From assembly GCA_038146865.1 (NCBI GenBank), contig JAYQSL010000007.1:492638-556637 (forward strand): a stretch of DNA of 64,000 bases, read 5' to 3'. This DNA comes from Rhodospirillaceae bacterium (lineage in GTDB: Bacteria > Pseudomonadota > Alphaproteobacteria > MPNO01 > UBA2964). The notes under the pieces were generated by a model that was given only the letters and a program-made list of their open reading frames with translations, searched no databases and was not told where the DNA came from. Shown one piece after another: positions 1,406-61,745 of this stretch. The first letter of the stretch is position 1, and each line of letters starts with the position of its first letter. Both the position numbers and the translations under genes were made by a program.

Positions 1406-2953
1406 TCATTCCTCGAAACCGTACTCTTTCCAGCGTGCGTTGACTTTGTCCATATCGGCTTTGTGAGGTGCCACGGTTGGTGGGTAGCGTTTTCCGCCGT
1501 ATTGCTCCTCCGGTTCAAAATCAAGATTGATTGTGGCATCTATTAAAACCCGACACCATTTTCCTGTCCCAAAAAGCATTGGGTCACGATCTTTCAAACG
1601 GGTTGAGGGATCAAGAAGGGATCCAAAATTTGCAGGAAAGAAAACAATATCATCCTCAGATGCATTTACCCTGTATGCGAAGGCCCAATCGACTGCGCCA
1701 TAATCCCGAATATCTATATCGTCATCCAGCACCCAGACATTTTTGTATCTCAGATGCGCGGAGTTTGATCCCCAAAGGGCGGCGGCGGCTTGTTTGGCTT
1801 GGCCACGATAAGTTTGATTTAATTGGATAAAAACTGTTGTGCCATTATTTGCAGGTGAACAGTGAACATCTGTTACTCCTGGTACGCCTGCCCGTTCTAG
1901 AACATTCCATGCGACCCCGGCGCGCTGTATTGAACTCATGACGCTATTCTCGTTCAACATTTTAGGCAGGGTGCCTTCAAGGGTTCCTCGGAAAATAGGA
2001 TTATTGCGGTGGGTTATGCACGTAACTTTGGTTACATGTTTTGGCCCTGCGTCTCCCCCAAAATATCCAGGGTATTCACCAAAGGGTCCTTCCATTTCGA
2101 AGGTAGAGGGATCAGGATCTATGTAACCCTCGACAACTATTTCTGCGCTAGCAGGTACGAGTAAATCATTGGTTTCGCATTTTACTAATTCGACAGGCTT
2201 TCCGCGGATAGCGCCCATCACGTCGTATTCAGAGACCCCAGTTGGAACGGGGGCTGATGCGCAATAGGGAAGGGAAGGTTCCCACCCGTAAACATGCGCG
2301 ACGGGCATTTTTTGTCCTCGTTCCGCCCATTTTTGAAAATGCACACCCCAATTTTGAGCTCTCCAAAGCAGAACAGGTAGGGTGTCTCTTTGACCAATCA
2401 TTCCACGATATATACCGAGATTATGTACTCCGGTATCCGGGTCCATCGTCACGGTGGCTTGAAAAGTGTTTATGTACCTTCCGCCGTCTTCGCGGTGCCA
2501 TTGAGGGACCGGAAAATCAAATAAATTTATCGAGTCCCCGACCAAGATGTTTTCTTTGACTGGGCCCGTGGCTACCTGAGTGGGTTCAACTCTCTGAGAT
2601 AGATAATATCTGGTTGCTAAAACGAGATCTCGCGCCGGAGAGTCCTTAGGTAAGCCAAGGGTCATCGCCAGTCTCGAGTAGTTCGACATCCCACCGGTGA
2701 AAAGTTGTGAGCATCTCGCACTGTCCTCGTTGTAACCAGTTATGTTTTTGAAGAGTATTGCAGGACCTTCCCCTGTGCCAAAAGCCTTTCGGGCAATGGT
2801 TCCAAGCTCACAATTCCAATCTACTTCAACATCAATTTCTTGAAGTGTATCTTCCTCCTTGAGCGCATCAATCCAACCCCTAAGATCCTCAAACACCCTG
2901 GGTTGCAATCTGTTCGACACCCCGCCAAATGAGTCAATATCATTACTATTCAT
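1406..2953 (-). CDS. UbiD-family (prFMN-dependent) decarboxylase, paralog A
   Basis: Contains UbiD-like motifs (GIYRGM, GYIDPDP, VTDVH). It is about 55-60% identical by eye to the adjacent paralog B. The ORF track extends it to 3118, but alignment with paralog B places the start at the internal Met (MNSNDIDSF...), which removes the overlap. Confidence 0.8.
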   Translation of the reverse strand: MNSNDIDSFGGVSNRLQPRVFEDLRGWIDALKEEDTLQEIDVEVDWNCELGTIARKAFGTGEGPAILFKNITGYNEDSARCSQLFTGGMSNYSRLAMTLGLPKDSPARDLVLATRYYLSQRVEPTQVATGPVKENILVGDSINLFDFPVPQWHREDGGRYINTFQATVTMDPDTGVHNLGIYRGMIGQRDTLPVLLWRAQNWGVHFQKWAERGQKMPVAHVYGWEPSLPYCASAPVPTGVSEYDVMGAIRGKPVELVKCETNDLLVPASAEIVVEGYIDPDPSTFEMEGPFGEYPGYFGGDAGPKHVTKVTCITHRNNPIFRGTLEGTLPKMLNENSVMSSIQRAGVAWNVLERAGVPGVTDVHCSPANNGTTVFIQLNQTYRGQAKQAAAALWGSNSAHLRYKNVWVLDDDIDIRDYGAVDWAFAYRVNASEDDIVFFPANFGSLLDPSTRLKDRDPMLFGTGKWCRVLIDATINLDFEPEEQYGGKRYPPTVAPHKADMDKVNARWKEYGFEE

Positions 2954-2987
2954 TATCTTTGTCTTTCCTGAAGGGTCCAAGTGTTGC

Positions 2988-4529
2988 TTATAGTAAGCCC
3001 TTGCCCCATTTATCGAGGCCCAATTCTTCCCATCGGGCCCTTGCCTTGTCTTGATCTTCCTTAGAGGGATGAACTGTTGGCGGCCAGCGTCGTCCCTGTT
3101 CATCCGGTTCATAATCAAGATTGATTGTGCAATCTAACAAGACACGGTGCCATTTACCTGTTCCAAATAGATGCACGTTTGAGTCTCGAGCTCGAACACT
3201 TGGATCAAGTCCTGCGCCCCAAGTCGAGGGGAATACGATTAAATCGTCTTCACCCGCATTGAATCTCCAGGCTAAAGCCCAATCGATCGCTCCATAATCA
3301 TGGACATCGATATCCTGGTCCACAACGAAGACATGTTTGTACCTAACATGTGATGCGGAGTTACCCCATAGAGCTGCCGCCACTTGTTTTGCTTGTCCAC
3401 GATAAGTTTGGTTAATTTGTACTGCCACATTAATGCCCGCTTGTATTGGCATTCCAAAAACGTCGGTAACCCCTGGGACACCTGCACTTTCTAGTGCGTT
3501 CCAAGCCGTCGCTGATCTCTGAATGGAGCTCATAATATGGTTTTCGCCGTAGGATCCAGGAACTGCACCTTCGAGGGCTCCACGTAATATGGGCCTGTCG
3601 CGATGGGTTATTGCTGTCACCCGAGCAACGTGTTTCGGTGTCTGCTCAGTCGCATAATAGCCGGTGAATTCAGCATATGGGCCCTCGGGTCTGAAAGTCT
3701 GAGGATCCGTTGATATCCATCCTTCGATTACAATCTCGGCGCTGGCCGGCACCTGCAACGGCACTGTTTCACAGTCTACTAATTCGACCGGTTCTCCTCT
3801 AATCGCACCCATAACTTCGTATTCTGAGACATCTCGAGGAACAGGTGAACCTGCCGTAAATCCCATCGTTGGCTCCCAGCCAATCACGAATGCGACGGGC
3901 ATCTCGTCAGCACGGGCCATGTGCTTTGCATAGTGGTTTCCCCATCCCTGCGCCCTCCACAGGAGAACGCCAATATTGGCTTGGTCCAGCGCCATTCCGC
4001 GATAAATACCGACGTTATGAATCCCTGATTCCGGATCCTTAGTGACGCAAGCCGAATACGTATTTATGTAACGACCACCATCGCCACGATTCCATTTCGG
4101 GATCGGGAATTTAAACAAGTCTATATCTCGCCCAGTGATAATATTGTCTTTAACCGGACCTGTGCGGACTGTTTTCGGCGGTATACGTTCTTTAAAAATG
4201 TATCGACACATTTTTACCATATCACGAATGGGGGTGTCGGGTTTTAAACCGAACATCATAGCTAAACGCGAATAGCTTCCCTGACCATTCGTGAAGACCT
4301 CGCCGCACACGCTCTCAGGTGTGTTGTAGTCTTTGATATTCTTGAAAAGGAAAGCCGGGCCAGCTCCAGTGCCTTGCGCCATGCGGACGATCGTCCCGAG
4401 CTCCGTATCCCAATCTACTTCTTGATCAAACTCCGCTAGCTCCCCGGCTTCACGCAGTGCTGCAATCCAACCCCTTAAATCTCCAAAGGCGACGGGTTTT
4501 CTCTCAATTCGGTCGCTGCTTTCATCCAA
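2988..4529 (-). CDS. UbiD-family (prFMN-dependent) decarboxylase, paralog B
   Basis: 513 aa, collinear with paralog A and with canonical UbiD (GIYRGM...VTDVF). Confidence 0.8.
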   Translation of the reverse strand: MDESSDRIERKPVAFGDLRGWIAALREAGELAEFDQEVDWDTELGTIVRMAQGTGAGPAFLFKNIKDYNTPESVCGEVFTNGQGSYSRLAMMFGLKPDTPIRDMVKMCRYIFKERIPPKTVRTGPVKDNIITGRDIDLFKFPIPKWNRGDGGRYINTYSACVTKDPESGIHNVGIYRGMALDQANIGVLLWRAQGWGNHYAKHMARADEMPVAFVIGWEPTMGFTAGSPVPRDVSEYEVMGAIRGEPVELVDCETVPLQVPASAEIVIEGWISTDPQTFRPEGPYAEFTGYYATEQTPKHVARVTAITHRDRPILRGALEGAVPGSYGENHIMSSIQRSATAWNALESAGVPGVTDVFGMPIQAGINVAVQINQTYRGQAKQVAAALWGNSASHVRYKHVFVVDQDIDVHDYGAIDWALAWRFNAGEDDLIVFPSTWGAGLDPSVRARDSNVHLFGTGKWHRVLLDCTINLDYEPDEQGRRWPPTVHPSKEDQDKARARWEELGLDKWGKGLL

Positions 4530-23319: not shown

Positions 23320-24828
23320 TTACCAAATCGACTTGCCCGAACCAGGCAAGCCTAAATCGGACCAAATAGAGTCTATTTTGCTAATGGTAGCATTATCCAT
23401 GCGAATTTTTTTACCCCACTCGCGTTGCGTTTCTGGAGGTATCTTGGTCGTCGCATCGATCCCCATTTTGGATCCAAGGCCGGAGTAGGGGGAGGCAAAA
23501 TCCAAATAATCTATAGGCGTATTTTCTAACATTACGGTGTCTCTCGATGGATCAGTATGAGTTGCAACTGCCCACACCACATCCTGCCAATTTCGCGCAT
23601 CAATGTCGTCATCTACAACAATTACAAATTTAGTATAGGTAAATTGCTTAAGGTAAGACCATACGGCCATCATGATCCGTCTCGCATGCCCCGGATACGA
23701 TTTTTTAATGGAGACTACCGCTATGCGATAAGAGCATGCCTCAGGCGGTAGCCAAAAATCGACAACTTCAGGGAATTGTTTTGTAAATAATGGAACAAAA
23801 ACATCATTGAGTGCCTCGCCCAAAGTGGATGGTTCATCCGGAGGACGACCGGTGAAGGTTGAGAGATAGATGGGGTTTTGCCGCATTGTAACAGCGCTGA
23901 CCGTAAACACTGGGAATTTTTCAATTGAATTATAAAAGCCGGTGTGGTCACCGTAGGGACCTTCTGATCGATAATCTGTCACGCTTACGTGCCCTTCAAG
24001 AACAATTTCAGCTTCTGCGGGGACAGATAAGGGGACTGTTTTGCACTTTACGAGAGATAACTTCTTCCGCCGCAAAAGGCCTGAAAATTCGTACTCTGAG
24101 AGTTTTTCGGGAACAGGTGCCACTGCAGCGATGGTTGTCCCAGGATCTGCACCTAAAACTACTGCCGCGGGAAGATCAGTTCCTCGTTGAGACGCACTTT
24201 TCAGAGCCTCTGCACCGCCTCGGTGTTCGAGCCACCGCATCAGAGTTTTATTTTTAGACAACAGTTGCATACGGTAAATACCAAGGTTCGTGCGGCCATT
24301 GTCTTCGGTTACTACGATAGGCCAAGTAATTAGCGGCGCTGGTTCTCCAGGCCAACACGTTTGGATAGGAAGGCTATTTAAATTTATTTCGTCACCCTCT
24401 ATGACGATCTCTTGGCAAGGTGCACGCCTAACAGTCTTTGGTTTCATCGCTAAAACAGGTTTGACGAGTGGAACCATTGATTTAGCTTCACGGAGGTTAG
24501 AGGGGGGGTCTGGCTGTTGCAAAAATGCGAGCTGTTCCCCGAATGAACGGAGCTCCTCGCGAGAGCGGCCCATTCCAAGGGCCACGCGTTCCACCGTTCC
24601 GAAAAGATTTGCAAGAACTGGGATTTCTGATTTCGTTCCATCAGCCCTAATTGAGTTCTCAAAAATTACAGCGGGTCCCCGATCTGACAGCAGCCTCGTT
24701 TGAATCTCTGTCATTTCATGGACGGTGGAAACTGGCTCAGAAACTCGAATGAGCTCATTCCGACGTTCCAGATCAAGAATAAAATCTCTTAGACTGTCAA
24801 AAGTCATTTGCCCAAGTGTTCTAATCAA
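23320..24828 (-). CDS. ubiD: 4-hydroxy-3-polyprenylbenzoate decarboxylase (canonical UbiD)
   Basis: Full-length 502-aa UbiD, divergent from ubiA. Confidence 0.85.
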
Positions 24829-24915: not shown

Positions 24916-25635
24916 ATGAGAGAAGAGGTCGAATTTGCACTTTCTTACCCGTTTGCAATTCCTCGTTCTTCCTTCATGTTTACTGTCGACCAGACCCAAC
25001 CCCTGAAGAAGTTGAGCGATGGCTTTCGATCGAGATTGCCGGTAATCGCGGTGGGTTCAAATCAGTCACCCTCACAACTTACCCGCAAATACAAAGGTCT
25101 TGCCGACACAGGAGAAATACCTGCAGAACGTGCAGTATTAAAAAATTTTGACGTGGTTTACGCCGCACATTTAGCGGGATATGGCTCAGTGCCTGCGACC
25201 TTCCAATCCTCGCCGGGGACATTAGTTACGATATTTGTGTTATGGCTGACAGAGATCCAGCTGTCTCGGATGCATCAAACAGAGTCCAATTATTATTTTG
25301 ATAAGTTAAACGGACTTGAAATTAAAACAGAATTTGGTTTTGAACTTGATACGGCATACGCATACACCGCTCGCAATGGTTGCTTAAATATTGAAGGCAG
25401 CCCATTAGCTTTGGCTGAGATATCTGCGAAAGACAGGTACTTTGACGAAGCGACACAATTGCAGGCGCAAGAAGCTGTTCGGGATATTACCGACGCGGGA
25501 AAAGAAATCGGGACCTTTGTCCTCGAAACAATCGAAGGGGCATCGGTTCGCGACAGTCGGATTAAGTTTTTGGCAAAGAAAGCGCTGCAGCCCACTTTCG
25601 ATCGAAAACTAATTGTTGATTTGAGTGAATATTAG
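24916..25635 (+). CDS. Hypothetical protein, possibly gamma-glutamyl cyclotransferase-like (AIG2/GGCT fold)
   Basis: A weak motif VIAVGSNQSPSQL resembles the YGSN signature. I recognise no other domains. Confidence 0.35.
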   Translation: MREEVEFALSYPFAIPRSSFMFTVDQTQPLKKLSDGFRSRLPVIAVGSNQSPSQLTRKYKGLADTGEIPAERAVLKNFDVVYAAHLAGYGSVPATFQSSPGTLVTIFVLWLTEIQLSRMHQTESNYYFDKLNGLEIKTEFGFELDTAYAYTARNGCLNIEGSPLALAEISAKDRYFDEATQLQAQEAVRDITDAGKEIGTFVLETIEGASVRDSRIKFLAKKALQPTFDRKLIVDLSEY

Positions 25636-25710: not shown

Positions 25711-26637
25711 TCAAAAAATTCTGCTTGCAAAAATACCTGCGAGGAAAAGCCAGCCGAAAATTTTATTTGATTGAAATTTTCTTAAGCAGTCACTGGGGCT
25801 ATTTATGTCCACGCTCCAAATTTGCCAAAATAATTGGATTGAAGCGATCCACAAACCTAGGTAGAAAGGCCAGCTCAAAGTCAATGAAAAGCCTGCCTGA
25901 AAAAACATTATTAAGGCCAGTGAATAAAAACTAAATAACCAGGGCTTGCTGCCGAGGCCAAATTTTCTTGCGGTCGACTTTACGCCCGCTTTTGGATCGT
26001 ACGCTCGATCTTGGTGTGCGTAAATTGTATCGTATCCTAGGGTCCAAAAGACTCCTCCAGCGTAAAGCCATAAAGCTTGCTCGTTGATTTCTCCTCTTAC
26101 GGCTGCCCATCCAAGCAGTGCTCCCCAATTGAATGTGAACCCCAGAAAAAGCTGCGGCCAGAATGTAATCCTTTTCATCAAGGGATAGGTGAATACGAGC
26201 AAGAGAGCAGTAGCGCCAATTATCCAAGAGAACATATTGAGGGAGAGCAGCACAACAAGTCCTACAGTTAATTGAACAAGCAAAAACAATGTTGCCCGTG
26301 TAACTGTGATCTCACCGCTAGGAAGTGGACGATTTTTAGTGCGTGCTACCTGAGCGTCAATGTTTCTATCTATTATATCGTTGAGAGTGCAGCCTGCTCC
26401 TCGCATCACAATTGCACCAAATCCAAACGTGATAAATAGCCAAAGGTCGTCATAACTCTCATAGCAAAGAGCTATGCTCCACCAGCATGGAAAAAGCAGC
26501 AGCCAAGTGCCTATAGGTCTGTCATAACGGGCTAATCGAATGTAAGGATGCAATGATGAAGGAGTGTACCTCTCAACCCAGTTATCCACTGGAATATCAC
26601 TTGCAGTCTCAATCGACGTTTTAGGTGATCGTTCCAT
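25711..26637 (-). CDS. ubiA: 4-hydroxybenzoate polyprenyltransferase
   Basis: UbiA prenyltransferase with NDxxDRxxD motifs (LNDIIDRNIDAQ) and about 8 transmembrane helices. Confidence 0.9.
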   Translation of the reverse strand: MERSPKTSIETASDIPVDNWVERYTPSSLHPYIRLARYDRPIGTWLLLFPCWWSIALCYESYDDLWLFITFGFGAIVMRGAGCTLNDIIDRNIDAQVARTKNRPLPSGEITVTRATLFLLVQLTVGLVVLLSLNMFSWIIGATALLLVFTYPLMKRITFWPQLFLGFTFNWGALLGWAAVRGEINEQALWLYAGGVFWTLGYDTIYAHQDRAYDPKAGVKSTARKFGLGSKPWLFSFYSLALIMFFQAGFSLTLSWPFYLGLWIASIQLFWQIWSVDINSPSDCLRKFQSNKIFGWLFLAGIFASRIF

Positions 26638-30632: not shown

Positions 30633-33135
<2,503 letters not shown>

Positions 33136-33166
33136 GGTTTAAGGCCAGGAGTCCAACGGAGGTATC

Positions 33167-34090
33167 GTGAGCGAACCGCAGCTCGATTTGGGGTATGCCA
33201 ACGCCAGATTTTCATATCTGGACGGGGGCGCTGTTTCAGATTACTTGGCGCTTCTCAAGCCTCGAGTGATGTCTTTGGTTGTGTTTACGGGCTTTGTCGG
33301 TCTGTATCTGGCTCCTGGGGAAATACATCCATTTTTGGCTTTTATTGCTGTCCTATGTATTGCTGTAGCCGCTGGCGCGTCTGGGGCCATCAACATGTGG
33401 TACGATAGAGATATCGATGCAATTATGGAGCGCACGTGTGATCGCCCTATCCCTGCAGGGAGGCTGCAACCAGGGGTGGCGTTGGCTTTTGGTAATACCC
33501 TGGCTATCGGGTCTGTTGCCGTCATGGGGTTGTGCATTAATTGGCACGCTGCTGTCTTACTTGCTTTCACGGTTTTCTTTTATGTTTTTATCTACACTAT
33601 TTGGCTTAAACGCCGGACACCACAGAACATAGTTATTGGAGGGGCCGCAGGGGCATTCCCGCCGATGGTAGGATGGTCAGCGGTCACGGGTGAAGTGTCG
33701 ATAGATTCTCTAGTTTTGTTTGCAATAATATTTATTTGGACCCCGCCTCATTTCTGGTCTCTTTCCCTTTATCGTAGTGGCGAATATGAAAAGGCAGGGG
33801 TACCTATGCTTCCAGTTGTATCTGGAGCGCAAGAAACCCGCAGGCAGATACTTATCTACACGTTGGTTTTGGCACCTCTGGGTGTTATGCCGGCCTTCTT
33901 GGGTACCACTAGTTGGGCTTATGGATTTGTAGCTGGGTTTATGGGATTGATCTTCATTTGGCTTTCAGTCCAGATTTCACGACAAAAAACAGATCATGCC
34001 GCCAGAAAGACTTTCAACTTTTCATTATTTTATCTCTCTGTTCTTTTCGCTGCGATGATTGCGGATCGGGCAATTGGGTTTGGTAATTGA
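33167..34090 (+). CDS. ctaB: Protohaem IX farnesyltransferase (haem O synthase)
   Basis: UbiA-superfamily CtaB/CyoE located inside the cox cluster. Confidence 0.9.
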   Translation: MSEPQLDLGYANARFSYLDGGAVSDYLALLKPRVMSLVVFTGFVGLYLAPGEIHPFLAFIAVLCIAVAAGASGAINMWYDRDIDAIMERTCDRPIPAGRLQPGVALAFGNTLAIGSVAVMGLCINWHAAVLLAFTVFFYVFIYTIWLKRRTPQNIVIGGAAGAFPPMVGWSAVTGEVSIDSLVLFAIIFIWTPPHFWSLSLYRSGEYEKAGVPMLPVVSGAQETRRQILIYTLVLAPLGVMPAFLGTTSWAYGFVAGFMGLIFIWLSVQISRQKTDHAARKTFNFSLFYLSVLFAAMIADRAIGFGN

Positions 34091-34101
34091 GGGGTGCAGG
34101 A

Positions 34102-34227
34102 ATGAAATTAACAGATGAACAAAGTCGTCGGCGCCGCAGCAGAAATATTGCGATCCTGGCCCTCTTAATAGGACTGGTATGTCTTTTTTATGCCATCACT
34201 ATCATAAAAATTTCAGGCGCATCTTGA
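34102..34227 (+). CDS. Small single-TM protein (41 aa) in the cox cluster
   Basis: ATG at 34102 reads MKLTDEQSRRRRSRNIAILALLIGLVCLFYAITIIKISGAS. It fills the ctaB-ctaG gap exactly, with its stop abutting the ctaG start. Confidence 0.4.
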   Translation: MKLTDEQSRRRRSRNIAILALLIGLVCLFYAITIIKISGAS

Positions 34228-34228
34228 G

Positions 34229-34831
34229 ATGAAATTCGCAAACCCAAAATGCCGCACCGTTTTGGGGCTCTTGCTCATCGTCGGTGTGATGACAGGCCTT
34301 ACAAGTTATTCCTCAACCTTGTATAAAATGTTTTGTGATTTTACAGGTTACGGTGGCACTACGCAGCGAGCAGAGGTGCCCTCTGATACGATTCTAGATA
34401 GGGTGATCAGAGTGCGATTTAATGCAGACGTGAATTCGGCATTGGATTGGGAATTTCGACCGGTTCAAAAAGAAACGAAAATCCGAGTTGGCGAAAGAGC
34501 GCTGGCTTTCTATTTTGCTCGTTCGACTTCTGAAAAACCTATTACAGGCACTGCGACCTTCAATGTAACCCCGGCTAAAGCTGGCAAATACTTTGTCAAA
34601 ACTGAATGTTTTTGTTTTACCGAGCAAACCTTGGAGGCAGGTGAGACAATAGACATGCCGGTTCAATTTTATATTGATCCAGAGATAGCCCAAGATAAAA
34701 ATCTGGATGAAGTCGATACTATAACCCTTTCATACACGTTTTTCCGCTCTGCAAAGGCTGGTGAAGATGAGAAAAATGAAACGATTTCCGCCCGCATCAC
34801 TGGTACTTCCTTACGCAATAAAATAAACTAA
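34229..34831 (+). CDS. ctaG: Cytochrome c oxidase assembly protein CtaG/Cox11
   Basis: N-terminal transmembrane segment followed by a Cox11 domain with CFCF. Confidence 0.9.
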   Translation: MKFANPKCRTVLGLLLIVGVMTGLTSYSSTLYKMFCDFTGYGGTTQRAEVPSDTILDRVIRVRFNADVNSALDWEFRPVQKETKIRVGERALAFYFARSTSEKPITGTATFNVTPAKAGKYFVKTECFCFTEQTLEAGETIDMPVQFYIDPEIAQDKNLDEVDTITLSYTFFRSAKAGEDEKNETISARITGTSLRNKIN

Positions 34832-34859
34832 CCGCAGTATTCAAAACAGGGACATAGAC

Positions 34860-35720
34860 ATGGTTGCACCCGCTGACAGTTCAAATATTCACGCTGCTGA
34901 ACATAAACATCCTTGGCATTTGGTTGATCCAAGCGCATGGCCAATTTTGGGCGCCTTCTCAGGTGGAGTTCTTGCCGTCGGAGCGGTGATCTACATGCAT
35001 GGGGGTGGCGGCTGGTTATTGGTCTTAGGTCTTCTCGCAGTATTGGGCGTTATGGCCGGCTGGTTTGCAGATGTTATAAAAGAGGCCACGCATCAAGGGT
35101 ATCATACCCGGCCTGTCCAAATCAGTATGCGTTATGGAATGGTCCTTTTTATAGCATCAGAGGTAATGTTTTTTGTCGCTTGGTTTTGGGCTTATTTTAA
35201 TGCAGCTTTTTTTCCTCCGGAGCAGATAAAAGGGGTCTGGCCACCACCAGGGATTGAGACCTTTAACCCCTGGGAACTTCCGTTTCTGAACACACTCATT
35301 TTATTAACATCCGGGGTCACAATTACATGGGCGCATCACGCGTTACTTGAAGGAAATAAAAAGCACCTGCTTCAGGGGCTCGGTTTGACAATCTTTTTAG
35401 GTCTTGTATTCACTGGAGTCCAAGCCTACGAATACAGTCATGCAGCTTTTAGTTTTGCCTTCGAGGAAGGTGCTGCGGGTAAAGGCGGGATATATCCGAC
35501 AACCTTTTATATGGCCACCGGTTTTCATGGTTTCCATGTCATTGTCGGTACCACATTTCTGATTGTATGTTATTTCCGGGCAAAGAAAGATCACTTTAAG
35601 ACTGATCACCATTTTGGTTTTGAGGCTGCTGCTTGGTATTGGCACTTTGTTGATGTTGTTTGGCTTTTCCTTTTTGTAGCGATTTACTGGTGGGGCGCAG
35701 GGGCGCCAGGGGCTAAGTAA
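34860..35720 (+). CDS. ctaE: Cytochrome c oxidase subunit III
   Basis: 7-TM COX3 sequence. Confidence 0.9.
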   Translation: MVAPADSSNIHAAEHKHPWHLVDPSAWPILGAFSGGVLAVGAVIYMHGGGGWLLVLGLLAVLGVMAGWFADVIKEATHQGYHTRPVQISMRYGMVLFIASEVMFFVAWFWAYFNAAFFPPEQIKGVWPPPGIETFNPWELPFLNTLILLTSGVTITWAHHALLEGNKKHLLQGLGLTIFLGLVFTGVQAYEYSHAAFSFAFEEGAAGKGGIYPTTFYMATGFHGFHVIVGTTFLIVCYFRAKKDHFKTDHHFGFEAAAWYWHFVDVVWLFLFVAIYWWGAGAPGAK

Positions 35721-35886: not shown

Positions 35887-36548
35887 ATGAGAGTAAGCAA
35901 ACGTTCTAGCTTTGCAATTGGGACTGCGATCGCTGTTTTAGCATGTGTTGCGTTGGGGAACTGGCAATTAGAACGCCTTAAATGGAAAAAAGATCTTATT
36001 GCTGGGATTGTTGCGGGGTTTAGCGCAATCCCGGTTGAACCTAATGCGTCACTTCCAGAATGGCGTCGCGTCAGTATATCCGGAGTATGGCTAAATAAGG
36101 CCCCTTTTTTTGTTGGACCAGTTTCCAAGAGGGGCCGTGCTGGTTGGTATGTGGTTTCACCCCTCCGTTCTAGTGACGGCAGTATTTTATTTGTTAATCG
36201 GGGTTTTCCGAGAAAAAAGCCCGGGATTTAAAGTCAGCGGGGAGAGTTAGCAACATTTTGGGTATTATAAGAAAACCAAAGCGAGCAGGCGTTTTTGCTC
36301 CCGATAATAATCCGATCTCGGGAAATTGGTTTCGAGTTGCTCCTCTGGAATTTGCCCGAGCCCGGGACTTGAAGGGGGTTTTGCCTTTTTGGGTGGATGC
36401 GCTTGAGGTTCCAGCGGGTTCACCCTTGATCGCGAACGTCACGCCCCAATTACCGCCAAACAATCATCTTGAATATGCGGTTACTTGGTATGCGTTCGCA
36501 TTTACCGCAGCACTGATTGCTTTATTATTTTGGATAAAAAATAAGTGA
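35887..36548 (+). pseudogene. surf1: SURF1 cytochrome oxidase assembly factor, split by a frameshift at an A6 run (36213-36218)
   Basis: Two adjacent ORFs in different frames (35887-36231 and 36258-36548) together reconstitute a SURF1-length protein. The C-terminus has NHLEYAVTWYAFA. Adding one A at the run fuses the two frames. Confidence 0.7.
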
Positions 36549-36549
36549 G

Positions 36550-37734
36550 TTATTTCCGTAAGAGGAATTCTCTTCCAACTTTCACCCTAGCGTCTCCATC
36601 ATATTCAACAATGTCAGCTGTGGCATAGGTTTCTGGCCAATTCTGAGGAAGGTAACTACCGGTCCCGATGACATCAATCGGGGCTTTAGCAGCAGCGAAA
36701 AGGCGACATTTGGAGGGGTTGAACCCGCTTGAACCGACGATCCTGACATTTTGGTAGCCTTCCGCATCCAGAGCGTCCCGTAGATGCCAAATTGAAGCGG
36801 CGGATACCCCTGGTCCTACAAGGTAGGCGAGTTCACTCTCTACACGATAGCTCCTGACAACATCGGGTACATGTTTTTCTAGAACAGCATATGAAACCGT
36901 AGGGTCTAAGCGTTCTACGTATCTACTGCCGGGTGTGTCCATCCGAAATGATAAAGTCCCAGCTTTTACCCTTTCGGGAAAGCGCTTGGCGACGCTCAAC
37001 GAGTCAGTTATTTCTTGGGCAAAGTAATCTACTAGCACCGTCATGGGAGCCTCTGGAAAGGACTGGTCAAACATTTCTGCCGCTCGAAGCGTGCTTCCCG
37101 CATAACCAATTAGGGCATGAGGCATTGTCCCGAGACCCTGTGGTTGTTCAAAATAGTGTGCCGTTGCATCAGTCGCGTTTCCGATGAACCCTATCGAACC
37201 GCATTTCTTTTTTGCCGCCAAAGACCCAACTGATGCGGCATAAGCCATAATTTCTGACATTCCTGTGCCGGCACAATGACGGGAATCCATGGCGAGGAAA
37301 GCGGTTTTAGGAAGGTCAGAGCACATTGAAAACGCGTTATATGCTGCGACACATGCAGGTCCAAGCTTTTGAAGCAAAAGGGTTTCAAGGTCAACAAGTT
37401 CTGAGAATAGCCCCGAGATATAGATAATAGGTTCTCCTGCGCCCACCCATGTCCCTTCAGGATATCTTATATCTTTAACAATCTTAATGTTCCGGCGGAG
37501 AGCGATGGACTCTAACCATTCAACCGCGAGCATTGGGGCGGAAATTACAGGACGCCGCATAAATACTGCGTAGGTTACTTGGGCGTCACCAAAATTTTTG
37601 ACAATTTCTTTGGTCAATACGAAGTATTTATCAGTCCAATCGGCAATTTCGTTATCTTTCGCCGGCCAATTACTCTCTGAGCGACCAGATTCATCAACAT
37701 TTAAAATTTCTTCGTGACGGCTCGGAGGCGTCAT
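36550..37734 (-). CDS. Nicotinate/nicotinamide phosphoribosyltransferase-family protein
   Basis: 394 aa that resembles the NAPRTase family overall. Family-level call only. Confidence 0.5.
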   Translation of the reverse strand: MTPPSRHEEILNVDESGRSESNWPAKDNEIADWTDKYFVLTKEIVKNFGDAQVTYAVFMRRPVISAPMLAVEWLESIALRRNIKIVKDIRYPEGTWVGAGEPIIYISGLFSELVDLETLLLQKLGPACVAAYNAFSMCSDLPKTAFLAMDSRHCAGTGMSEIMAYAASVGSLAAKKKCGSIGFIGNATDATAHYFEQPQGLGTMPHALIGYAGSTLRAAEMFDQSFPEAPMTVLVDYFAQEITDSLSVAKRFPERVKAGTLSFRMDTPGSRYVERLDPTVSYAVLEKHVPDVVRSYRVESELAYLVGPGVSAASIWHLRDALDAEGYQNVRIVGSSGFNPSKCRLFAAAKAPIDVIGTGSYLPQNWPETYATADIVEYDGDARVKVGREFLLRK

Positions 37735-37838
37735 AGTCCAGGCTCGATTATTAATCTCATTTACTACAGCTCATTGAAACATAAAGTTGTGTTCCTAGGA
37801 TAGTGTGGTTACAAGCATTTTCCAGAAGAGGGACAATA

Positions 37839-40805: not shown

Positions 40806-42021
40806 AAAAACTGTCCTTAATAATGGGCTAGAAATTGTGACCGATGAGTTGGAAACGGTTGAAACCGTTTCTCTCGGTGTTTGGGTAAAGGTTGGATCGA
40901 GATACGAGCCAAAATCTCTGAGCGGTGTCTCCCATTTTCTCGAACACATGGCCTTTAAGGGAACGGGTCGACGAAGTGCTCGAGAGATTGCTGAGGAGAT
41001 AGAGGCAGTGGGAGGGCAGTTAAATGCGTATACTTCAAGCGAAGTTACGGCCTACCATGCTACCGTAATGAAAGAGGATATTGGGCTCGGTGTGGATATT
41101 CTCGGGGACATCCTTCAACATTCAGCCTTTGAGGTCGAGGAGTTAGAGCGTGAACGAGCGGTAATACTTCAGGAAATAGCTCATGCTCAGGACTCCCCGG
41201 AAGACCTTGTATTCGAACTTTTTCAAGAGCTTGCATATCCTGATCATTCCCTAGGCCGTCCAATTACAGGTTCACCTGAGGTTGTTAAGGCCCTCGATCG
41301 CTCAAAAATTTTTGATTATATGAAACAAAATTACGGGTCGAGTAATATAGTAATTGCCGCCGCAGGGAATATTGAACACGAGAAATTTTGTGACCTTATA
41401 GAAAATGCATTTGGTGAGTTAGGTAAAGGTAATTCACTTAAACCGGAAAAACCATCATATGCAGGCGGAGAGCGTTGTATCCGAAAAGATTTTGAACAGG
41501 TGCATCTTATTATTGGCTATCCTGGGCCTAGTGCAGTTGATTCTTTGCGTCTGGAGGCTGGGATTGGATCAATGGTCCTCGGGGGAGGAATGTCCTCAAG
41601 ATTGTTCCAAGTGATCCGTGAAAAAATGGGTCTCGCTTATTCAGTCTATAGTTTTATCTCTTCTTATCAGGACACAGGGTTGATGGGTTTTTATGCTGCA
41701 ACCAGTCCCGACCAATCCGAAAAATTACTTGAGTTTATGCAATATGAAATCGGAAATATTCTAAAAGGCATAACAACGGAAGAGTTGAAACGTGCTAAAG
41801 CGTTATTGAGATCGGGGGTTGTAATGTCACTTGAGAGCACTTCCGCGAGAGCAGAGAGGGCTGCGCGCGACCTCGTAATTTACGGGAAGATTTTGCCGAT
41901 TTCGGATCTAATAGAGCAGATTGATAATGTCTCGATCGATGGGGTAATGGAGGCTATGAATAATTACCTCAGTTCTAGTGTTATCTTATCTCAAGTTGGT
42001 CCAGCCCCGCATAACGCGTAA
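40795..42021 (+). CDS. M16 family zinc peptidase (mitochondrial processing peptidase-like)
   Basis: Inverted zinc motif HFLEHMAFKGT. The start at MSVRKTVLNNG overlaps the thrC stop by 11 nt. Confidence 0.8.
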   Translation: MSVRKTVLNNGLEIVTDELETVETVSLGVWVKVGSRYEPKSLSGVSHFLEHMAFKGTGRRSAREIAEEIEAVGGQLNAYTSSEVTAYHATVMKEDIGLGVDILGDILQHSAFEVEELERERAVILQEIAHAQDSPEDLVFELFQELAYPDHSLGRPITGSPEVVKALDRSKIFDYMKQNYGSSNIVIAAAGNIEHEKFCDLIENAFGELGKGNSLKPEKPSYAGGERCIRKDFEQVHLIIGYPGPSAVDSLRLEAGIGSMVLGGGMSSRLFQVIREKMGLAYSVYSFISSYQDTGLMGFYAATSPDQSEKLLEFMQYEIGNILKGITTEELKRAKALLRSGVVMSLESTSARAERAARDLVIYGKILPISDLIEQIDNVSIDGVMEAMNNYLSSSVILSQVGPAPHNA

Positions 42022-47425: not shown

Positions 47426-47890
47426 ATGATTACCCGGCTGTTTGTTTTAATAGTTTTTACCTTTACGCTTTCCGGATGTCTTCCCTGGCCAAATGTAGCT
47501 AAGCCACCTTCGTGTCCCGAGGTAACACTTATCCAGGATCCTCCTTTGTTCGGTGACACACGAGTCCAAAGCAGTATTGTTAATTTCAGTGGAAAATGTG
47601 GCTATAAAAGAAAGAAAACAGCGCTGGAGGTATCTCTTAGTCTTGTTTTTGAAGTCAAAAGAAAAAATTCGAGTGATGTCTTCTCCCATAATCAAGTTTA
47701 CTACGTTGCTATCCCTAAATTTTACCCAAATCCAATGGGCAAACGGGTTTTCAGTTTTCCGATTAAATTTGCGGTAAATGAAGAAAGAGTAAGAGCGTCT
47801 GATAGGGTTAGGATAACTATTCCACTGAAGGTAGGGACGCCGATTGATGACTATGTTATCTATGTAGGGCTATCCAAAAGTTCTAGCTGA
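47426..47890 (+). CDS. Hypothetical lipoprotein
   Basis: Signal peptide with lipobox LSGC. I recognise no other domain. Confidence 0.5.
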   Translation: MITRLFVLIVFTFTLSGCLPWPNVAKPPSCPEVTLIQDPPLFGDTRVQSSIVNFSGKCGYKRKKTALEVSLSLVFEVKRKNSSDVFSHNQVYYVAIPKFYPNPMGKRVFSFPIKFAVNEERVRASDRVRITIPLKVGTPIDDYVIYVGLSKSSS

Positions 47891-47965
47891 AATTATTGGT
47901 GATGGAATTTAGCAAAGTCTGTTCCCATAGAACCATTCCATGCCTTTTTTCTGACGATTTATTGA

Positions 47966-48445
47966 CTATTGAAGGTTTCTGGGAAGTTCTTTAATTGCAG
48001 TGTCTATGAGTTTTTGGGATTCCTTCTGTCCCAGTCTTCGTTCCAGAAGTTCTGATGAAGCTTTGATTGCCATATCAACTGCGAGATTACGAACTTCTGC
48101 GATCGCATCAGCTTCTGCCTGAGAAATCTTTTCATGAGCTAGTTGCTCTCTGCGGGCTAACGTGTTTTTGAGAGAATATTCTGCTTCAGATCGCATGCTC
48201 TCAGTTTGAGAACGAGCATTCGCAACTAAGGCCTCGATTTCTTTCGCTGCTTCTCTTTGCTTGCGTTGATAGTCGGCTAAAAGGTGCTGCGCCTCTTCTC
48301 TCAGTTTCTCTGCTTCATCAAGGCTGGAGCGAATCTTATCTGCCCGAGAGTCCAGAGATGTTATTATCATTTTTTTTGCGGGCTTGACTAGAACTGCCAA
48401 TAGAATGAGGAACCCGACTGCTACCCAGAACTCAGGAGTATTCAT
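47966..48445 (-). CDS. atpF: ATP synthase F0 subunit b
   Basis: Single transmembrane helix plus a long charged helix, in the alphaproteobacterial atpIBEF'F operon order. Confidence 0.8.
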   Translation of the reverse strand: MNTPEFWVAVGFLILLAVLVKPAKKMIITSLDSRADKIRSSLDEAEKLREEAQHLLADYQRKQREAAKEIEALVANARSQTESMRSEAEYSLKNTLARREQLAHEKISQAEADAIAEVRNLAVDMAIKASSELLERRLGQKESQKLIDTAIKELPRNLQ

Positions 48446-48936
48446 GGTGCAGACTCCTGATTGATTGTTTCAACTGTGCTAAGAGCCTCTGCTTTCGAGA
48501 CCTCAGACCCCGAGAGCTTTAGGACTGTTATTTGAACAAGCTCTGCCGCAACTGATTTAATATCGGCAATTGCATCATGACGTGCTGCGTTAATTTTAGC
48601 CTCCGCCTCCGCGGTCATCGCAGAAATGCTTTTCAGAGCTTCAGCTTCACGATGGGCTTGACTTTCAGCTATTTGTAATACGGCTTCCTGGATAATTTTT
48701 TGAGCTTCCAACTTACCGCTAGAAATAGACTCTTCGTATGCAGCCAGGACAGACGTTGCCTCAAGCTGCAGTTGTTCAGCACGCTCCAAGTCATTTTCGA
48801 CACGAGATTGCCGTTCTTCTAAAACTCCGGAAATCCGCGGAATTACGACCTTCCACATAACTAAGTATAGCAGCAAGAACGTTATACAAAGCCAAAGAAT
48901 TTGTGTTGGGAAGGTCGCAAAATCTAATTGGGGCAT
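48442..48936 (-). CDS. atpG: ATP synthase F0 subunit b'
   Basis: Second b-type subunit, overlapping atpF by 4 nt. Confidence 0.75.
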   Translation of the reverse strand: MPQLDFATFPTQILWLCITFLLLYLVMWKVVIPRISGVLEERQSRVENDLERAEQLQLEATSVLAAYEESISSGKLEAQKIIQEAVLQIAESQAHREAEALKSISAMTAEAEAKINAARHDAIADIKSVAAELVQITVLKLSGSEVSKAEALSTVETINQESAP

Positions 48937-48982
48937 ATCTCTCTGATCCGTCGCTTATCTCGACAAAGTTGAGTCAAACTAA

Positions 48983-49210
48983 TCAGAATACGAACAGCAG
49001 CAAGAGGGCTACTACTAATGCATAAAGTGCGATTGCTTCAACGAGGGCGAAACCAATCCAGGTCATCGCAGTCACATGAGGCGCAGCGGCGGGGTTGCGG
49101 GCAACAGAGGAGATGAATGCGGCGAAAATATTTCCTATGCCGACCCCTGCGCCAATAACTCCAATAGCGGCTAAACCGGCTCCAATAAGTTTTGCTGCAG
49201 CAGCTTCCAT
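48983..49210 (-). CDS. atpE: ATP synthase F0 subunit c
   Basis: 75-aa proteolipid with the conserved carboxylate helix. Confidence 0.9.
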
Positions 49211-49262
49211 AATTTTTTCCTTTCTTTTTTTAGCGGTTAATGCGTCTGATGCTCATTAAGGA

Positions 49263-50001
49263 TTAATGAAGATGAATCGCGTCGTTTATATAAAAACAGG
49301 TCAAGATCGTGAAAACGTAAGCCTGTAAGAATGCAATTAGAAGCTCCAAACCAGTAAGGGCTACTACAAATGCCAATGGAAGAATTCCTCCAATAACCCC
49401 CATGCTCACGACAAAGCCAGCAAAAACCTTTAACATAGTATGACCAGCAGTCAGGTTAGCAAATAGACGAACTCCCTAGACTAACGGGGCGGGATAAATA
49501 TGAAATAATCTCGATAGGGATCATTAATGGCCACAAAACTACAGATACGCCTGGTGGGACGAAAAAACTAAAAAAGTGCCATCCATGTCGTACAAAACCT
49601 AAGATTGTAACACCTACGAAAACAACAATAGCCATCGTAAACGTCACAATTATGTGGCTTGTGAAAGTAAAGCTGTATGGGATCATTCCTAACATGTTGC
49701 CGAATAGAATGAACATGAACAGAGAAAACACAAAGGGAAAATATTTCCTGCCCTCATTGCCAACCGTTTCGACTAGCAGATTTGCAACAAACTCGTATGA
49801 AATCTCCGCCATGGATTGCCATCGGCCCGGTACAAGTGAGCTTTTCCGCATCCCCAAAACGAGAAACAGTGTAATCAGAAGGACAGAAAGGGCCATAAAT
49901 GCGGCCGAATTGGTAAAGGCTATACTGGTTTCACCGACGCTTATTGGCATTAATTCCTTAATTTCAAATTGTGCCAGCGGGCTCTGCGCACTCTCAGCCA
50001 C
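49263..50001 (-). pseudogene. atpB: ATP synthase F0 subunit a, interrupted by a 1-nt insertion in a G run
   Basis: The 49456-50001 ORF ends ...[16 protein letters not shown]. The next frame continues [12 protein letters not shown]...NDAIHLH* (49263-49473), which carries the essential Arg of subunit a. Removing one G at minus-strand GGG (plus-strand ccc, 49474-49476) restores a 246-aa protein. Confidence 0.8.
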
Positions 50002-50404
50002 TATCTTTGTTCCCTTCAGTCTCTTCTCTGCTAACGCTGCGATTAGAATAATTTTTTAAGTTAGCTCTGTAACCAACCGTTTGGCTTAAACCGGCGGCTG
50101 TTCTGTACACATTAAAAATACCAGCAATAGATCCCAAAACAAAAAACACCAACAAACACCAAGGATTTGTTCCTAACCAATAATCTAAAGCAAGTCCAAT
50201 TAGCACTCCAACTATTAGAGCGGAAACCAGTTCAACACCGATCCGCATCGCGAAACCTAGGCCTTGACGCACACCGCTACCAACAGTTGCACCAGGTGCC
50301 TCCGATCCAGACGATTCCCTAGCATGACTCAACCGAGTGGCCAAGGAGTTTAAGGGATCGATCTCGTTATCATTCGTCATATGATCGCTATAATAGGATC
50401 GCAC
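49994..50404 (-). CDS. atpI: ATP synthase protein I (AtpI-like)
   Basis: Small hydrophobic protein at the head of the F0 operon. Confidence 0.6.
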   Translation of the reverse strand: MRSYYSDHMTNDNEIDPLNSLATRLSHARESSGSEAPGATVGSGVRQGLGFAMRIGVELVSALIVGVLIGLALDYWLGTNPWCLLVFFVLGSIAGIFNVYRTAAGLSQTVGYRANLKNYSNRSVSREETEGNKDSG

Positions 50405-56541: not shown

Positions 56542-57753
<1,212 letters not shown>

Positions 57754-61366: not shown

Positions 61367-61404
61367 CGGGTCCTAATCTTTTGGTCCCGGGAATGCCAGA
61401 AAGG

Positions 61405-61572
61405 CTATTTTATTTTTGCTTCTTTGAATACAACGTGTTTTCGGGCAACTGGATCGTATTTCCGTTTTTCCATTTTCTCTGTGAGAGTACGAGGGTTTTT
61501 TCGGGTAATATAGTAAAAGCCAGTATCGGCCGTGCTGACCAATTTAATCTGTATCGAGTTAGCCTTCGCCAT
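61405..61572 (-). CDS. rpmG: 50S ribosomal protein L33 (bL33)
   Basis: Hand-translated 55 aa: [55 protein letters not shown], a classic bL33. It is missing from the ORF track because it is under 60 aa. Confidence 0.8.
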
Positions 61573-61745
61573 TACTTTTATTCCTTCGAAAGAATGATGG
61601 ATGCTGGAAAATACAAGCGACGTTCATTCTGTCAAGGAGTAATCATATTTGTGCCAATCTTTTACTGGACCAGGGTGCCTGCTCTTTGGGCTAGTGAGAT
61701 GCCTGACGATAGTCCCAAAATCATTCGTATTTAGAACGAAAAAAT

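Follow-up and report, generated by a model that had tools for sequence, protein, structure and literature searches.

The gene for the cytochrome c oxidase assembly factor Surf1 is divided into two open reading frames in the window, that is, in the whole stretch of 64,000 nucleotides analysed here, and this split is most probably not biological. An error of assembly or consensus building is the best explanation, with a probability that we put at about two in three, and the organism, a marine alphaproteobacterium, most likely encodes an intact Surf1 protein of 220 aa.

The surf1 gene and its genomic context

The surf1 locus and the oxidase genes that precede it comprise the following features.

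35887..36548, + strand: surf1, cytochrome c oxidase assembly factor, 220 aa after restoration of one G
35887..36231, + strand: N-terminal ORF, 114 aa, comprising the first transmembrane segment (TM1) and half of the periplasmic domain and ending at a TAA codon made by the frameshift
36258..36548, + strand: C-terminal ORF, 96 aa from a TTG codon, comprising the rest of the periplasmic domain, the conserved His194 and the second transmembrane segment (TM2)
30633..35720, + strand: ctaC-ctaD-ctaB-(small ORF)-ctaG-ctaE cluster, intact and directly 5' of surf1

The first-pass annotation had recognised two halves of a SURF1 protein in different frames, at 35887-36231 and 36258-36548, and had named their alignment to SURF1 as a check beforehand. 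ORFs are indeed present at exactly these coordinates, and both match the Pfam SURF1 profile (PF02104) above its gathering score of 23.4 bits. The N-terminal ORF aligns to profile positions 2-105 (E 2.7e-22, 80.6 bits) and the C-terminal ORF to positions 124-205 of 205 (E 4.9e-10, 40.5 bits). After repair with one G, the protein gives a single PF02104 match that covers positions 2-205 of 205 with 133.5 bits, which corresponds to full length. A hydropathy scan of the repaired 220-aa protein detects exactly two transmembrane segments, at approximately residues 7-26 and 197-217, and each of the two fragments in the window possesses one of them. H194 is the sole histidine of the repaired protein and lies within the motif NNHLEYAVTWY, immediately preceding TM2. 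The frameshift falls at residue 106/107, parting TM1 from the histidine and TM2, and therefore neither fragment should function by itself.

Bacterial Surf1 proteins consist of a periplasmic domain flanked by two membrane anchors and are encoded by genes linked to those of the oxidase, and the conserved histidine at the junction of the periplasmic domain and the transmembrane segment is a putative ligand of heme a (PMC9145763). The phenotypes of surf1 loss range from moderate to complete; in Rhodobacter sphaeroides the deletion strain keeps 40% fully active oxidase (PMC9145763). The gene of the window falls in the same Pfam family as Surf1c of Paracoccus denitrificans, Surf1 of R. sphaeroides and mitochondrial SURF1/Shy1, with the same topology and histidine and the same cta linkage as surf1c (PMC9145763); it differs from them only in sequence divergence and in its one-base deletion. 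The full-length profile match, the two-segment topology, the histidine next to TM2 and the linkage to cta genes identify it as a member of the SURF1 family, and it is an ordinary alphaproteobacterial surf1 that ends a ctaCDBGE cluster. Binding of heme a by this Surf1 and its insertion into subunit I are predicted from homology to the characterised proteins. A tblastn search of the window revealed no second surf1 copy there.

The products of the cta cluster are matched in the gene calls of the relatives as COX2, COX1, UbiA, YCO2, CtaG_Cox11 and COX3, with identical products. Between ctaB and ctaG, an ORF of 46 aa (34087-34227, + strand) occupies the place of a 41-aa product with a PF27516 (YCO2) match in the relatives, and thus represents a small conserved protein of the oxidase cluster. 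On the other side, a gene on the minus strand (36550-37734) is convergent with surf1, the two stop codons being one base apart, and encodes a conserved protein of 394 aa. This protein has no Pfam match at E <= 1e-5, only a faint QRPTase_N assignment is found in the records of the relatives, and every related contig encodes this protein.

Position and nature of the surf1 lesion

The frame of the C-terminal ORF is open from about 36198, and both SURF1 frames are open together only at about 36198-36231; therefore, one +1 or -1 event within this overlap explains the split. The overlap contains several short runs, namely, G4 at 36200-36203, T4 at 36204-36207 and A6 at 36213-36218, followed by C3 and G3, and the insertion of one base anywhere in about 36198-36228 results in a 220-aa protein. 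Two of these runs have to be distinguished.

36200..36203, + strand: the actual lesion, G4 in the window, G5 in close relatives, CGAGGG in a second clade and CGCGGG in contig L011
36213..36218, + strand: A6 run, not the lesion; the same A6 is found in the intact contigs L004, L005, L006, L007 and L009

The relatives were found by exact-sequence look-up of the CtaE and CtaC products, which returned a large number of independent metagenome and MAG contigs from JGI, ENA, NCBI and Logan. These contigs have the same gene order as the window, with an intact 220-aa SURF1 in place of its two ORFs. Base-level alignment to nine intact relatives assigns the one missing base to the G run, where the window reads AATCGGGGTTTTCC and close relatives AATCGGGGGTTTTCC. 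In its wider context, the site reads AATCGGGGTTTTCCGAGAAAAAAGCC in the window and AATCGGGGGTTTTCCGAGAAAAAAGCC in the closest relatives (L004, L005 and L009, 98-99% identical).

The frameshift had been attributed to the A6 run, where one added A at 36213-36218 was proposed to fuse the two halves into a protein of about 220 aa. The length was correct, as was the single one-base event, but the site was not. The A6 run does exist at these coordinates, but its length is the same in five intact close relatives, and it is therefore not the lesion. The surf1 lesion is a change from G5 to G4, located 13 nt upstream of the A6 run. Over 36195-36225, repair with G leaves 0 mismatches to L005 and L009 and repair with A leaves 6; over the whole gene, the sequence repaired with G differs from L005 at 5 of 663 nt and that repaired with A at 11. 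The proper repaired protein accordingly reads ...VNRGFSEKKARDL... and not ...VNRGFPRKKARDL.... Pfam was rejected as a judge between the two repairs, which score 133.5 bits (G) and 132.8 bits (A), and only DNA alignment to close relatives discriminates between them. Among the relatives, the SURF1 column of the missing base is occupied by G, A or C. That the deletion coincides with a polymorphic column carries no significance by itself, about 20% of SURF1 columns being polymorphic and the run spanning five of them.

A pile-up of the 13 contigs that cover the site, which are 88-99% identical to the window, revealed one base more than in the window in all 13, and an intact 220-aa SURF1 was called or translated in 11 of them. 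The G4 allele is absent from each of these 13 related contigs. It was encountered 0 times in the metagenome collection, in which a pattern accepting either G4 or G5 recovered one contig, with G5. The lesion of a pseudogene would be shared by independent samples or assemblies, whereas this one is found in 0/13 relatives. Neither further lesions nor relaxed constraint were detected in surf1, judged by the 5/663 nt differences from the intact L005, a comparison with very low power for relaxed selection. In a scan of species representatives, the nearest species-level genome, with 88% amino-acid identity, was a Tara MAG labelled 'uncultured Rhodospirillaceae'; the next one was at about 34%.

The atpB disruption and other private differences

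Two other single-base indels of the window, one of them in the gene for the F0 subunit a of the ATP synthase, bear on the origin of the surf1 split.

49263..50001, - strand: atpB, encoding the F0 subunit a; an extra base at 49477 breaks it into pieces of 181 aa and 57 aa
49473..49477, - strand: the atpB lesion, coding strand CTAGGGA, where relatives have CTGGGA (L026, L029) or CTAGGG (L028)
37826..37826, + strand: third private indel, an extra A in an intergenic region, 13 nt upstream of the ATG (37839) of an M32 carboxypeptidase gene and absent in 6/6 relatives

The two pieces of atpB lie in different frames, at 49456-50001 (181 aa, matching PF00119 at profile positions 3-148) and at 49263-49436 (57 aa), and the repaired protein matches PF00119 over positions 3-217 of 217. 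The intact atpB product of the relatives comprises 245 aa (L026). An ORF at 49994-50404 was considered as the N-terminal half of atpB and rejected; by its Pfam match it is atpI (PF09527), located upstream of atpB. The first-pass annotation had listed atpB as a second homopolymer-associated disruption. The frameshift is confirmed, but the association with a homopolymer has to be withdrawn, because the extra base at 49477 (coding strand AGTCT[A]GGGAGTT) lengthens no run.

On the coding strand, the atpB site reads AGTCTAGGGAGTT in the window, AGTCTGGGAGTT in L026 and L029, and AGTCTAGGGGTT in L028. Two synonymous SNPs (CTG GGA versus CTA GGG) separate the L026 and L028 haplotypes at this site. 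The same difference can also be written as the insertion of an A before GGG and the deletion of an A after GGG, and of these two changes the window has only the first; the haplotypes CTGGGAGT (L026) and CTAGGGGT (L028) are thereby blended into CTAGGGAGT. The lesion site is the only place in the last 573 nt of atpB where a pair of L026/L028 SNPs lies no more than 6 nt apart, and the product found in the window is 1 of 2218 possible products of a single-base insertion. The window resembles L028 at 49328-49410 and L026 at 49422-49501, the switch being about 55 nt from the lesion. The form of the lesion suggests a consensus built from mixed strains. Such a blend is very unlikely to result from a spontaneous mutation, whereas consensus building or polishing on mixed haplotypes would readily generate it.

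Private differences were counted in 25.6 kb of the window (23702-46930 and 47506-49838), each part being covered by at least two contigs. The contigs included have 93-99.9% identity, except for L011 with 88-89%, and amount to 171 kb of relatives overall. Three window-private single-base indels were found in this region, at 36200 in SURF1, at 49477 in atpB and at 37826. At the last site the window reads CCAGAAGAGGG and the relatives read CCAGAGAGGG or CCAGAAAGGG, and the insertion sets both alleles of a G/A SNP of the relatives side by side. Two of the three private indels break a reading frame, both in core genes, as would be expected of errors, which strike without regard to function in a sequence with about 90% coding content, and not of variants filtered by selection. 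A T/A run at 47945-47950 was dropped as a fourth private indel, its length varying among the relatives (A5 to A8). This poly-T/A tract is a naturally hypervariable homopolymer in the spacer between an ORF of 154 aa (47426-47890) and atpF.

At positions covered by at least three relatives, the window has 48 private substitutions, comprising 30 synonymous, 11 nonsynonymous and 7 intergenic changes, and this distribution shows effective purifying selection in the lineage of the window. Among the homopolymers of at least 5 bases in the compared region, one of 179 varies in length, and it does so among the relatives as well. The window assembly is not generally error-ridden. The earlier statement that the other genes are intact holds for all others tested, which match their Pfam profiles end to end.

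Gene-breaking lesions of a private kind also occur in the relatives, at about 1 per 35-57 kb, a rate similar to the 2 per 64 kb of the window. A 1-nt deletion private to L051 (window 28257) splits GCS2, and another, private to L002 (window 33957), shortens ctaB. Contig L043 has an in-frame stop codon in an M16 peptidase gene amid a cluster of odd substitutions (window 41281-41361), and compensating pairs of indels are present in ctaD of L005 (window 32127-32186). In L042, a scaffold N-gap (window 39834) splits the threonine synthase gene.

Several observations concern other parts of the window.

1406-3118, 2988-4529, 23320-24828 and 25711-26637, - strand: UbiD-family and UbiA genes

The 64 kb contain three genes for UbiD-family decarboxylases, two in tandem and the third near a gene for a UbiA prenyltransferase, an unusual density of paralogs for a compact genome. 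The gene at 56542-57723 (- strand), which adjoins genes for RNase HII and a MutY-like protein, specifies a DNA methyltransferase (N6_N4_Mtase) that carries a RAMA domain at its C-terminus and is possibly of the CcrM type. No Pfam match at E <= 1e-5 was obtained for the ORFs at 24916-25635 (+ strand, 239 aa), 47426-47890 (+ strand, 154 aa) and 61381-61734 (+ strand, 117 aa), and the first two of them are conserved in related contigs.

Origin of the split and its significance

The absence of one G from the G5 run at 36200-36203 would, in the favoured explanation, have arisen during assembly or consensus building and not through a biological change. The consensus would probably have drawn on several closely related strains mixed together, and the extra base at 49477 in atpB and the extra A at 37826 would be errors of the same kind. 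Assembly errors are known to include frameshifts induced by indels (PMC9262707, PMC12007338). As in the fragmented genes described for that class of error, private single-base indels, one of them homopolymeric, are found in conserved genes of the window; however, their rate is low (3 in 25.6 kb), unlike that of a raw long-read assembly. Errors in homopolymer length differ from what is seen here in that two of the three indels change no run length and coincide with SNP sites. The surf1 lesion has the properties expected of an artefact: it is private, lies in a conserved gene and is accompanied by further single-base indels that are likewise private and insensitive to coding constraint. Against an artefact stand the otherwise accurate assembly, in which the single variable homopolymer among the 179 long ones varies naturally, and the tolerance of surf1 loss in some bacteria (PMC9145763). 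Both broken genes belong to oxidative phosphorylation, which accounts for about 14% of the coding sequence as estimated from ORF lengths, and the probability of both falling there is about 2%, reckoned post hoc. This is left as a post hoc coincidence that the artefact model does not explain. The two disruptions had been suggested to form a meaningful pattern, a reading that the comparison does not sustain, since neither lesion is shared by any independent assembly and the lesions of the relatives hit unrelated genes.

As the main alternative, surf1 may have been inactivated by a real, very recent and strain-private slippage deletion of 1 bp in the G5 run, which we consider possible but unlikely. 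Contraction of a homopolymer by one unit is the commonest kind of spontaneous frameshift, and the lesion is such a contraction; furthermore, the 48 private substitutions in 23.5 kb mark a distinct lineage where mutations could arise. Loss of Surf1 is also non-lethal in R. sphaeroides (PMC9145763). Were the deletion real, assembly of the aa3 oxidase would be less efficient, and spontaneous -1 slippage might partly rescue expression. The codons of the shifted frame are CGG GGT TTT CCG AGA AAA AAG CCC GGG ATT TAA, and this rescue zone of 11 codons contains two in-frame slippery heptamers, against a background of 0.0042 per codon determined from 12 intact genes.

36201..36207, + strand: G_GGT_TTT, an in-frame X_XXY_YYZ heptamer made by the deletion; a simulated -1 slip gives the exact wild-type protein
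36213..36219, + strand: A_AAA_AAG, a dnaX-type heptamer in frame in the shifted frame; a simulated -1 slip gives ...NRGFPRKKARDL...

Two slippery heptamers being in frame, a real deletion could therefore be leaky. That G4 is real and wild-type Surf1 is made by spontaneous -1 slippage on G_GGU_UUU and/or A_AAA_AAG is nevertheless very improbable; if true, this would be a natural case of a self-suppressing frameshift in a homopolymer. Both heptamers arise incidentally from the homopolymer context, and no stimulatory RNA structure was found downstream, the minimum free energy being -22.1 kcal/mol compared with a mean of -21.2 for shuffled sequences (z = -0.32). A real deletion also fits poorly with a surf1 gene that bears neither a second lesion nor signs of relaxed constraint, with the restriction of the allele to the window among the 13 relatives and the scanned metagenomes, and with the strong purifying selection in its lineage. 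The companion lesion in atpB, if real, would leave the cell with intact atpI, E, F and F' but no F1Fo function, and its haplotype-blend form is unlike a spontaneous mutation. Should the deletion be real after all, this non-essential assembly factor would have a null allele that is probably leaky and of mild interest.

The same two heptamers, in frame and upstream of the zero-frame stop codon, could instead serve programmed recoding, in which -1 ribosomal frameshifting, or transcriptional slippage at A6, would be the normal mode of surf1 expression. As in dnaX-type -1 frameshifting (A_AAA_AAG; X_XXY_YYZ), the heptamers are canonical and have the right frame and place for restoring the protein; the window differs from that system in having neither a downstream stimulator nor conservation, which makes this a resemblance and not membership. 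The predicted fold of the downstream RNA is no more stable than that of shuffled sequences. Productive transcriptional slippage is usually associated with A/T runs of about 9 or more, and the A6 run is below that length. All 13 covering relatives carry the extra base and need no recoding, and the two-frame arrangement is unconserved; judged from these contigs, programmed recoding appears effectively refuted by the missing conservation. Genuine ongoing decay of oxidative phosphorylation, with surf1 and atpB becoming pseudogenes and aerobic respiration being lost, would account for the fact that both split genes are oxidative-phosphorylation genes, yet it is very improbable. The genes ctaC, D, B, G and E and atpI, E, F and F' are intact, and those compared (ctaC, ctaE and atpF') are identical to the relatives at the protein level. 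Each broken gene has exactly one lesion and is intact in the relatives, and the atpB lesion looks technical.

With an assembly or consensus error as the preferred explanation, the significance of the split lies chiefly in quality control. The annotation should name the gene surf1 and flag a probable sequence error, to be repaired with one G in the run at 36200-36203 instead of one A at 36213-36218. The surf1 split should not be read as a sign of respiratory functions being lost in this marine alphaproteobacterium. The lesions at 49477 and 37826 suggest that consensus building in this assembly occasionally goes wrong at sites of difference between co-occurring strains, which matters for pseudogene calls elsewhere in the genome.
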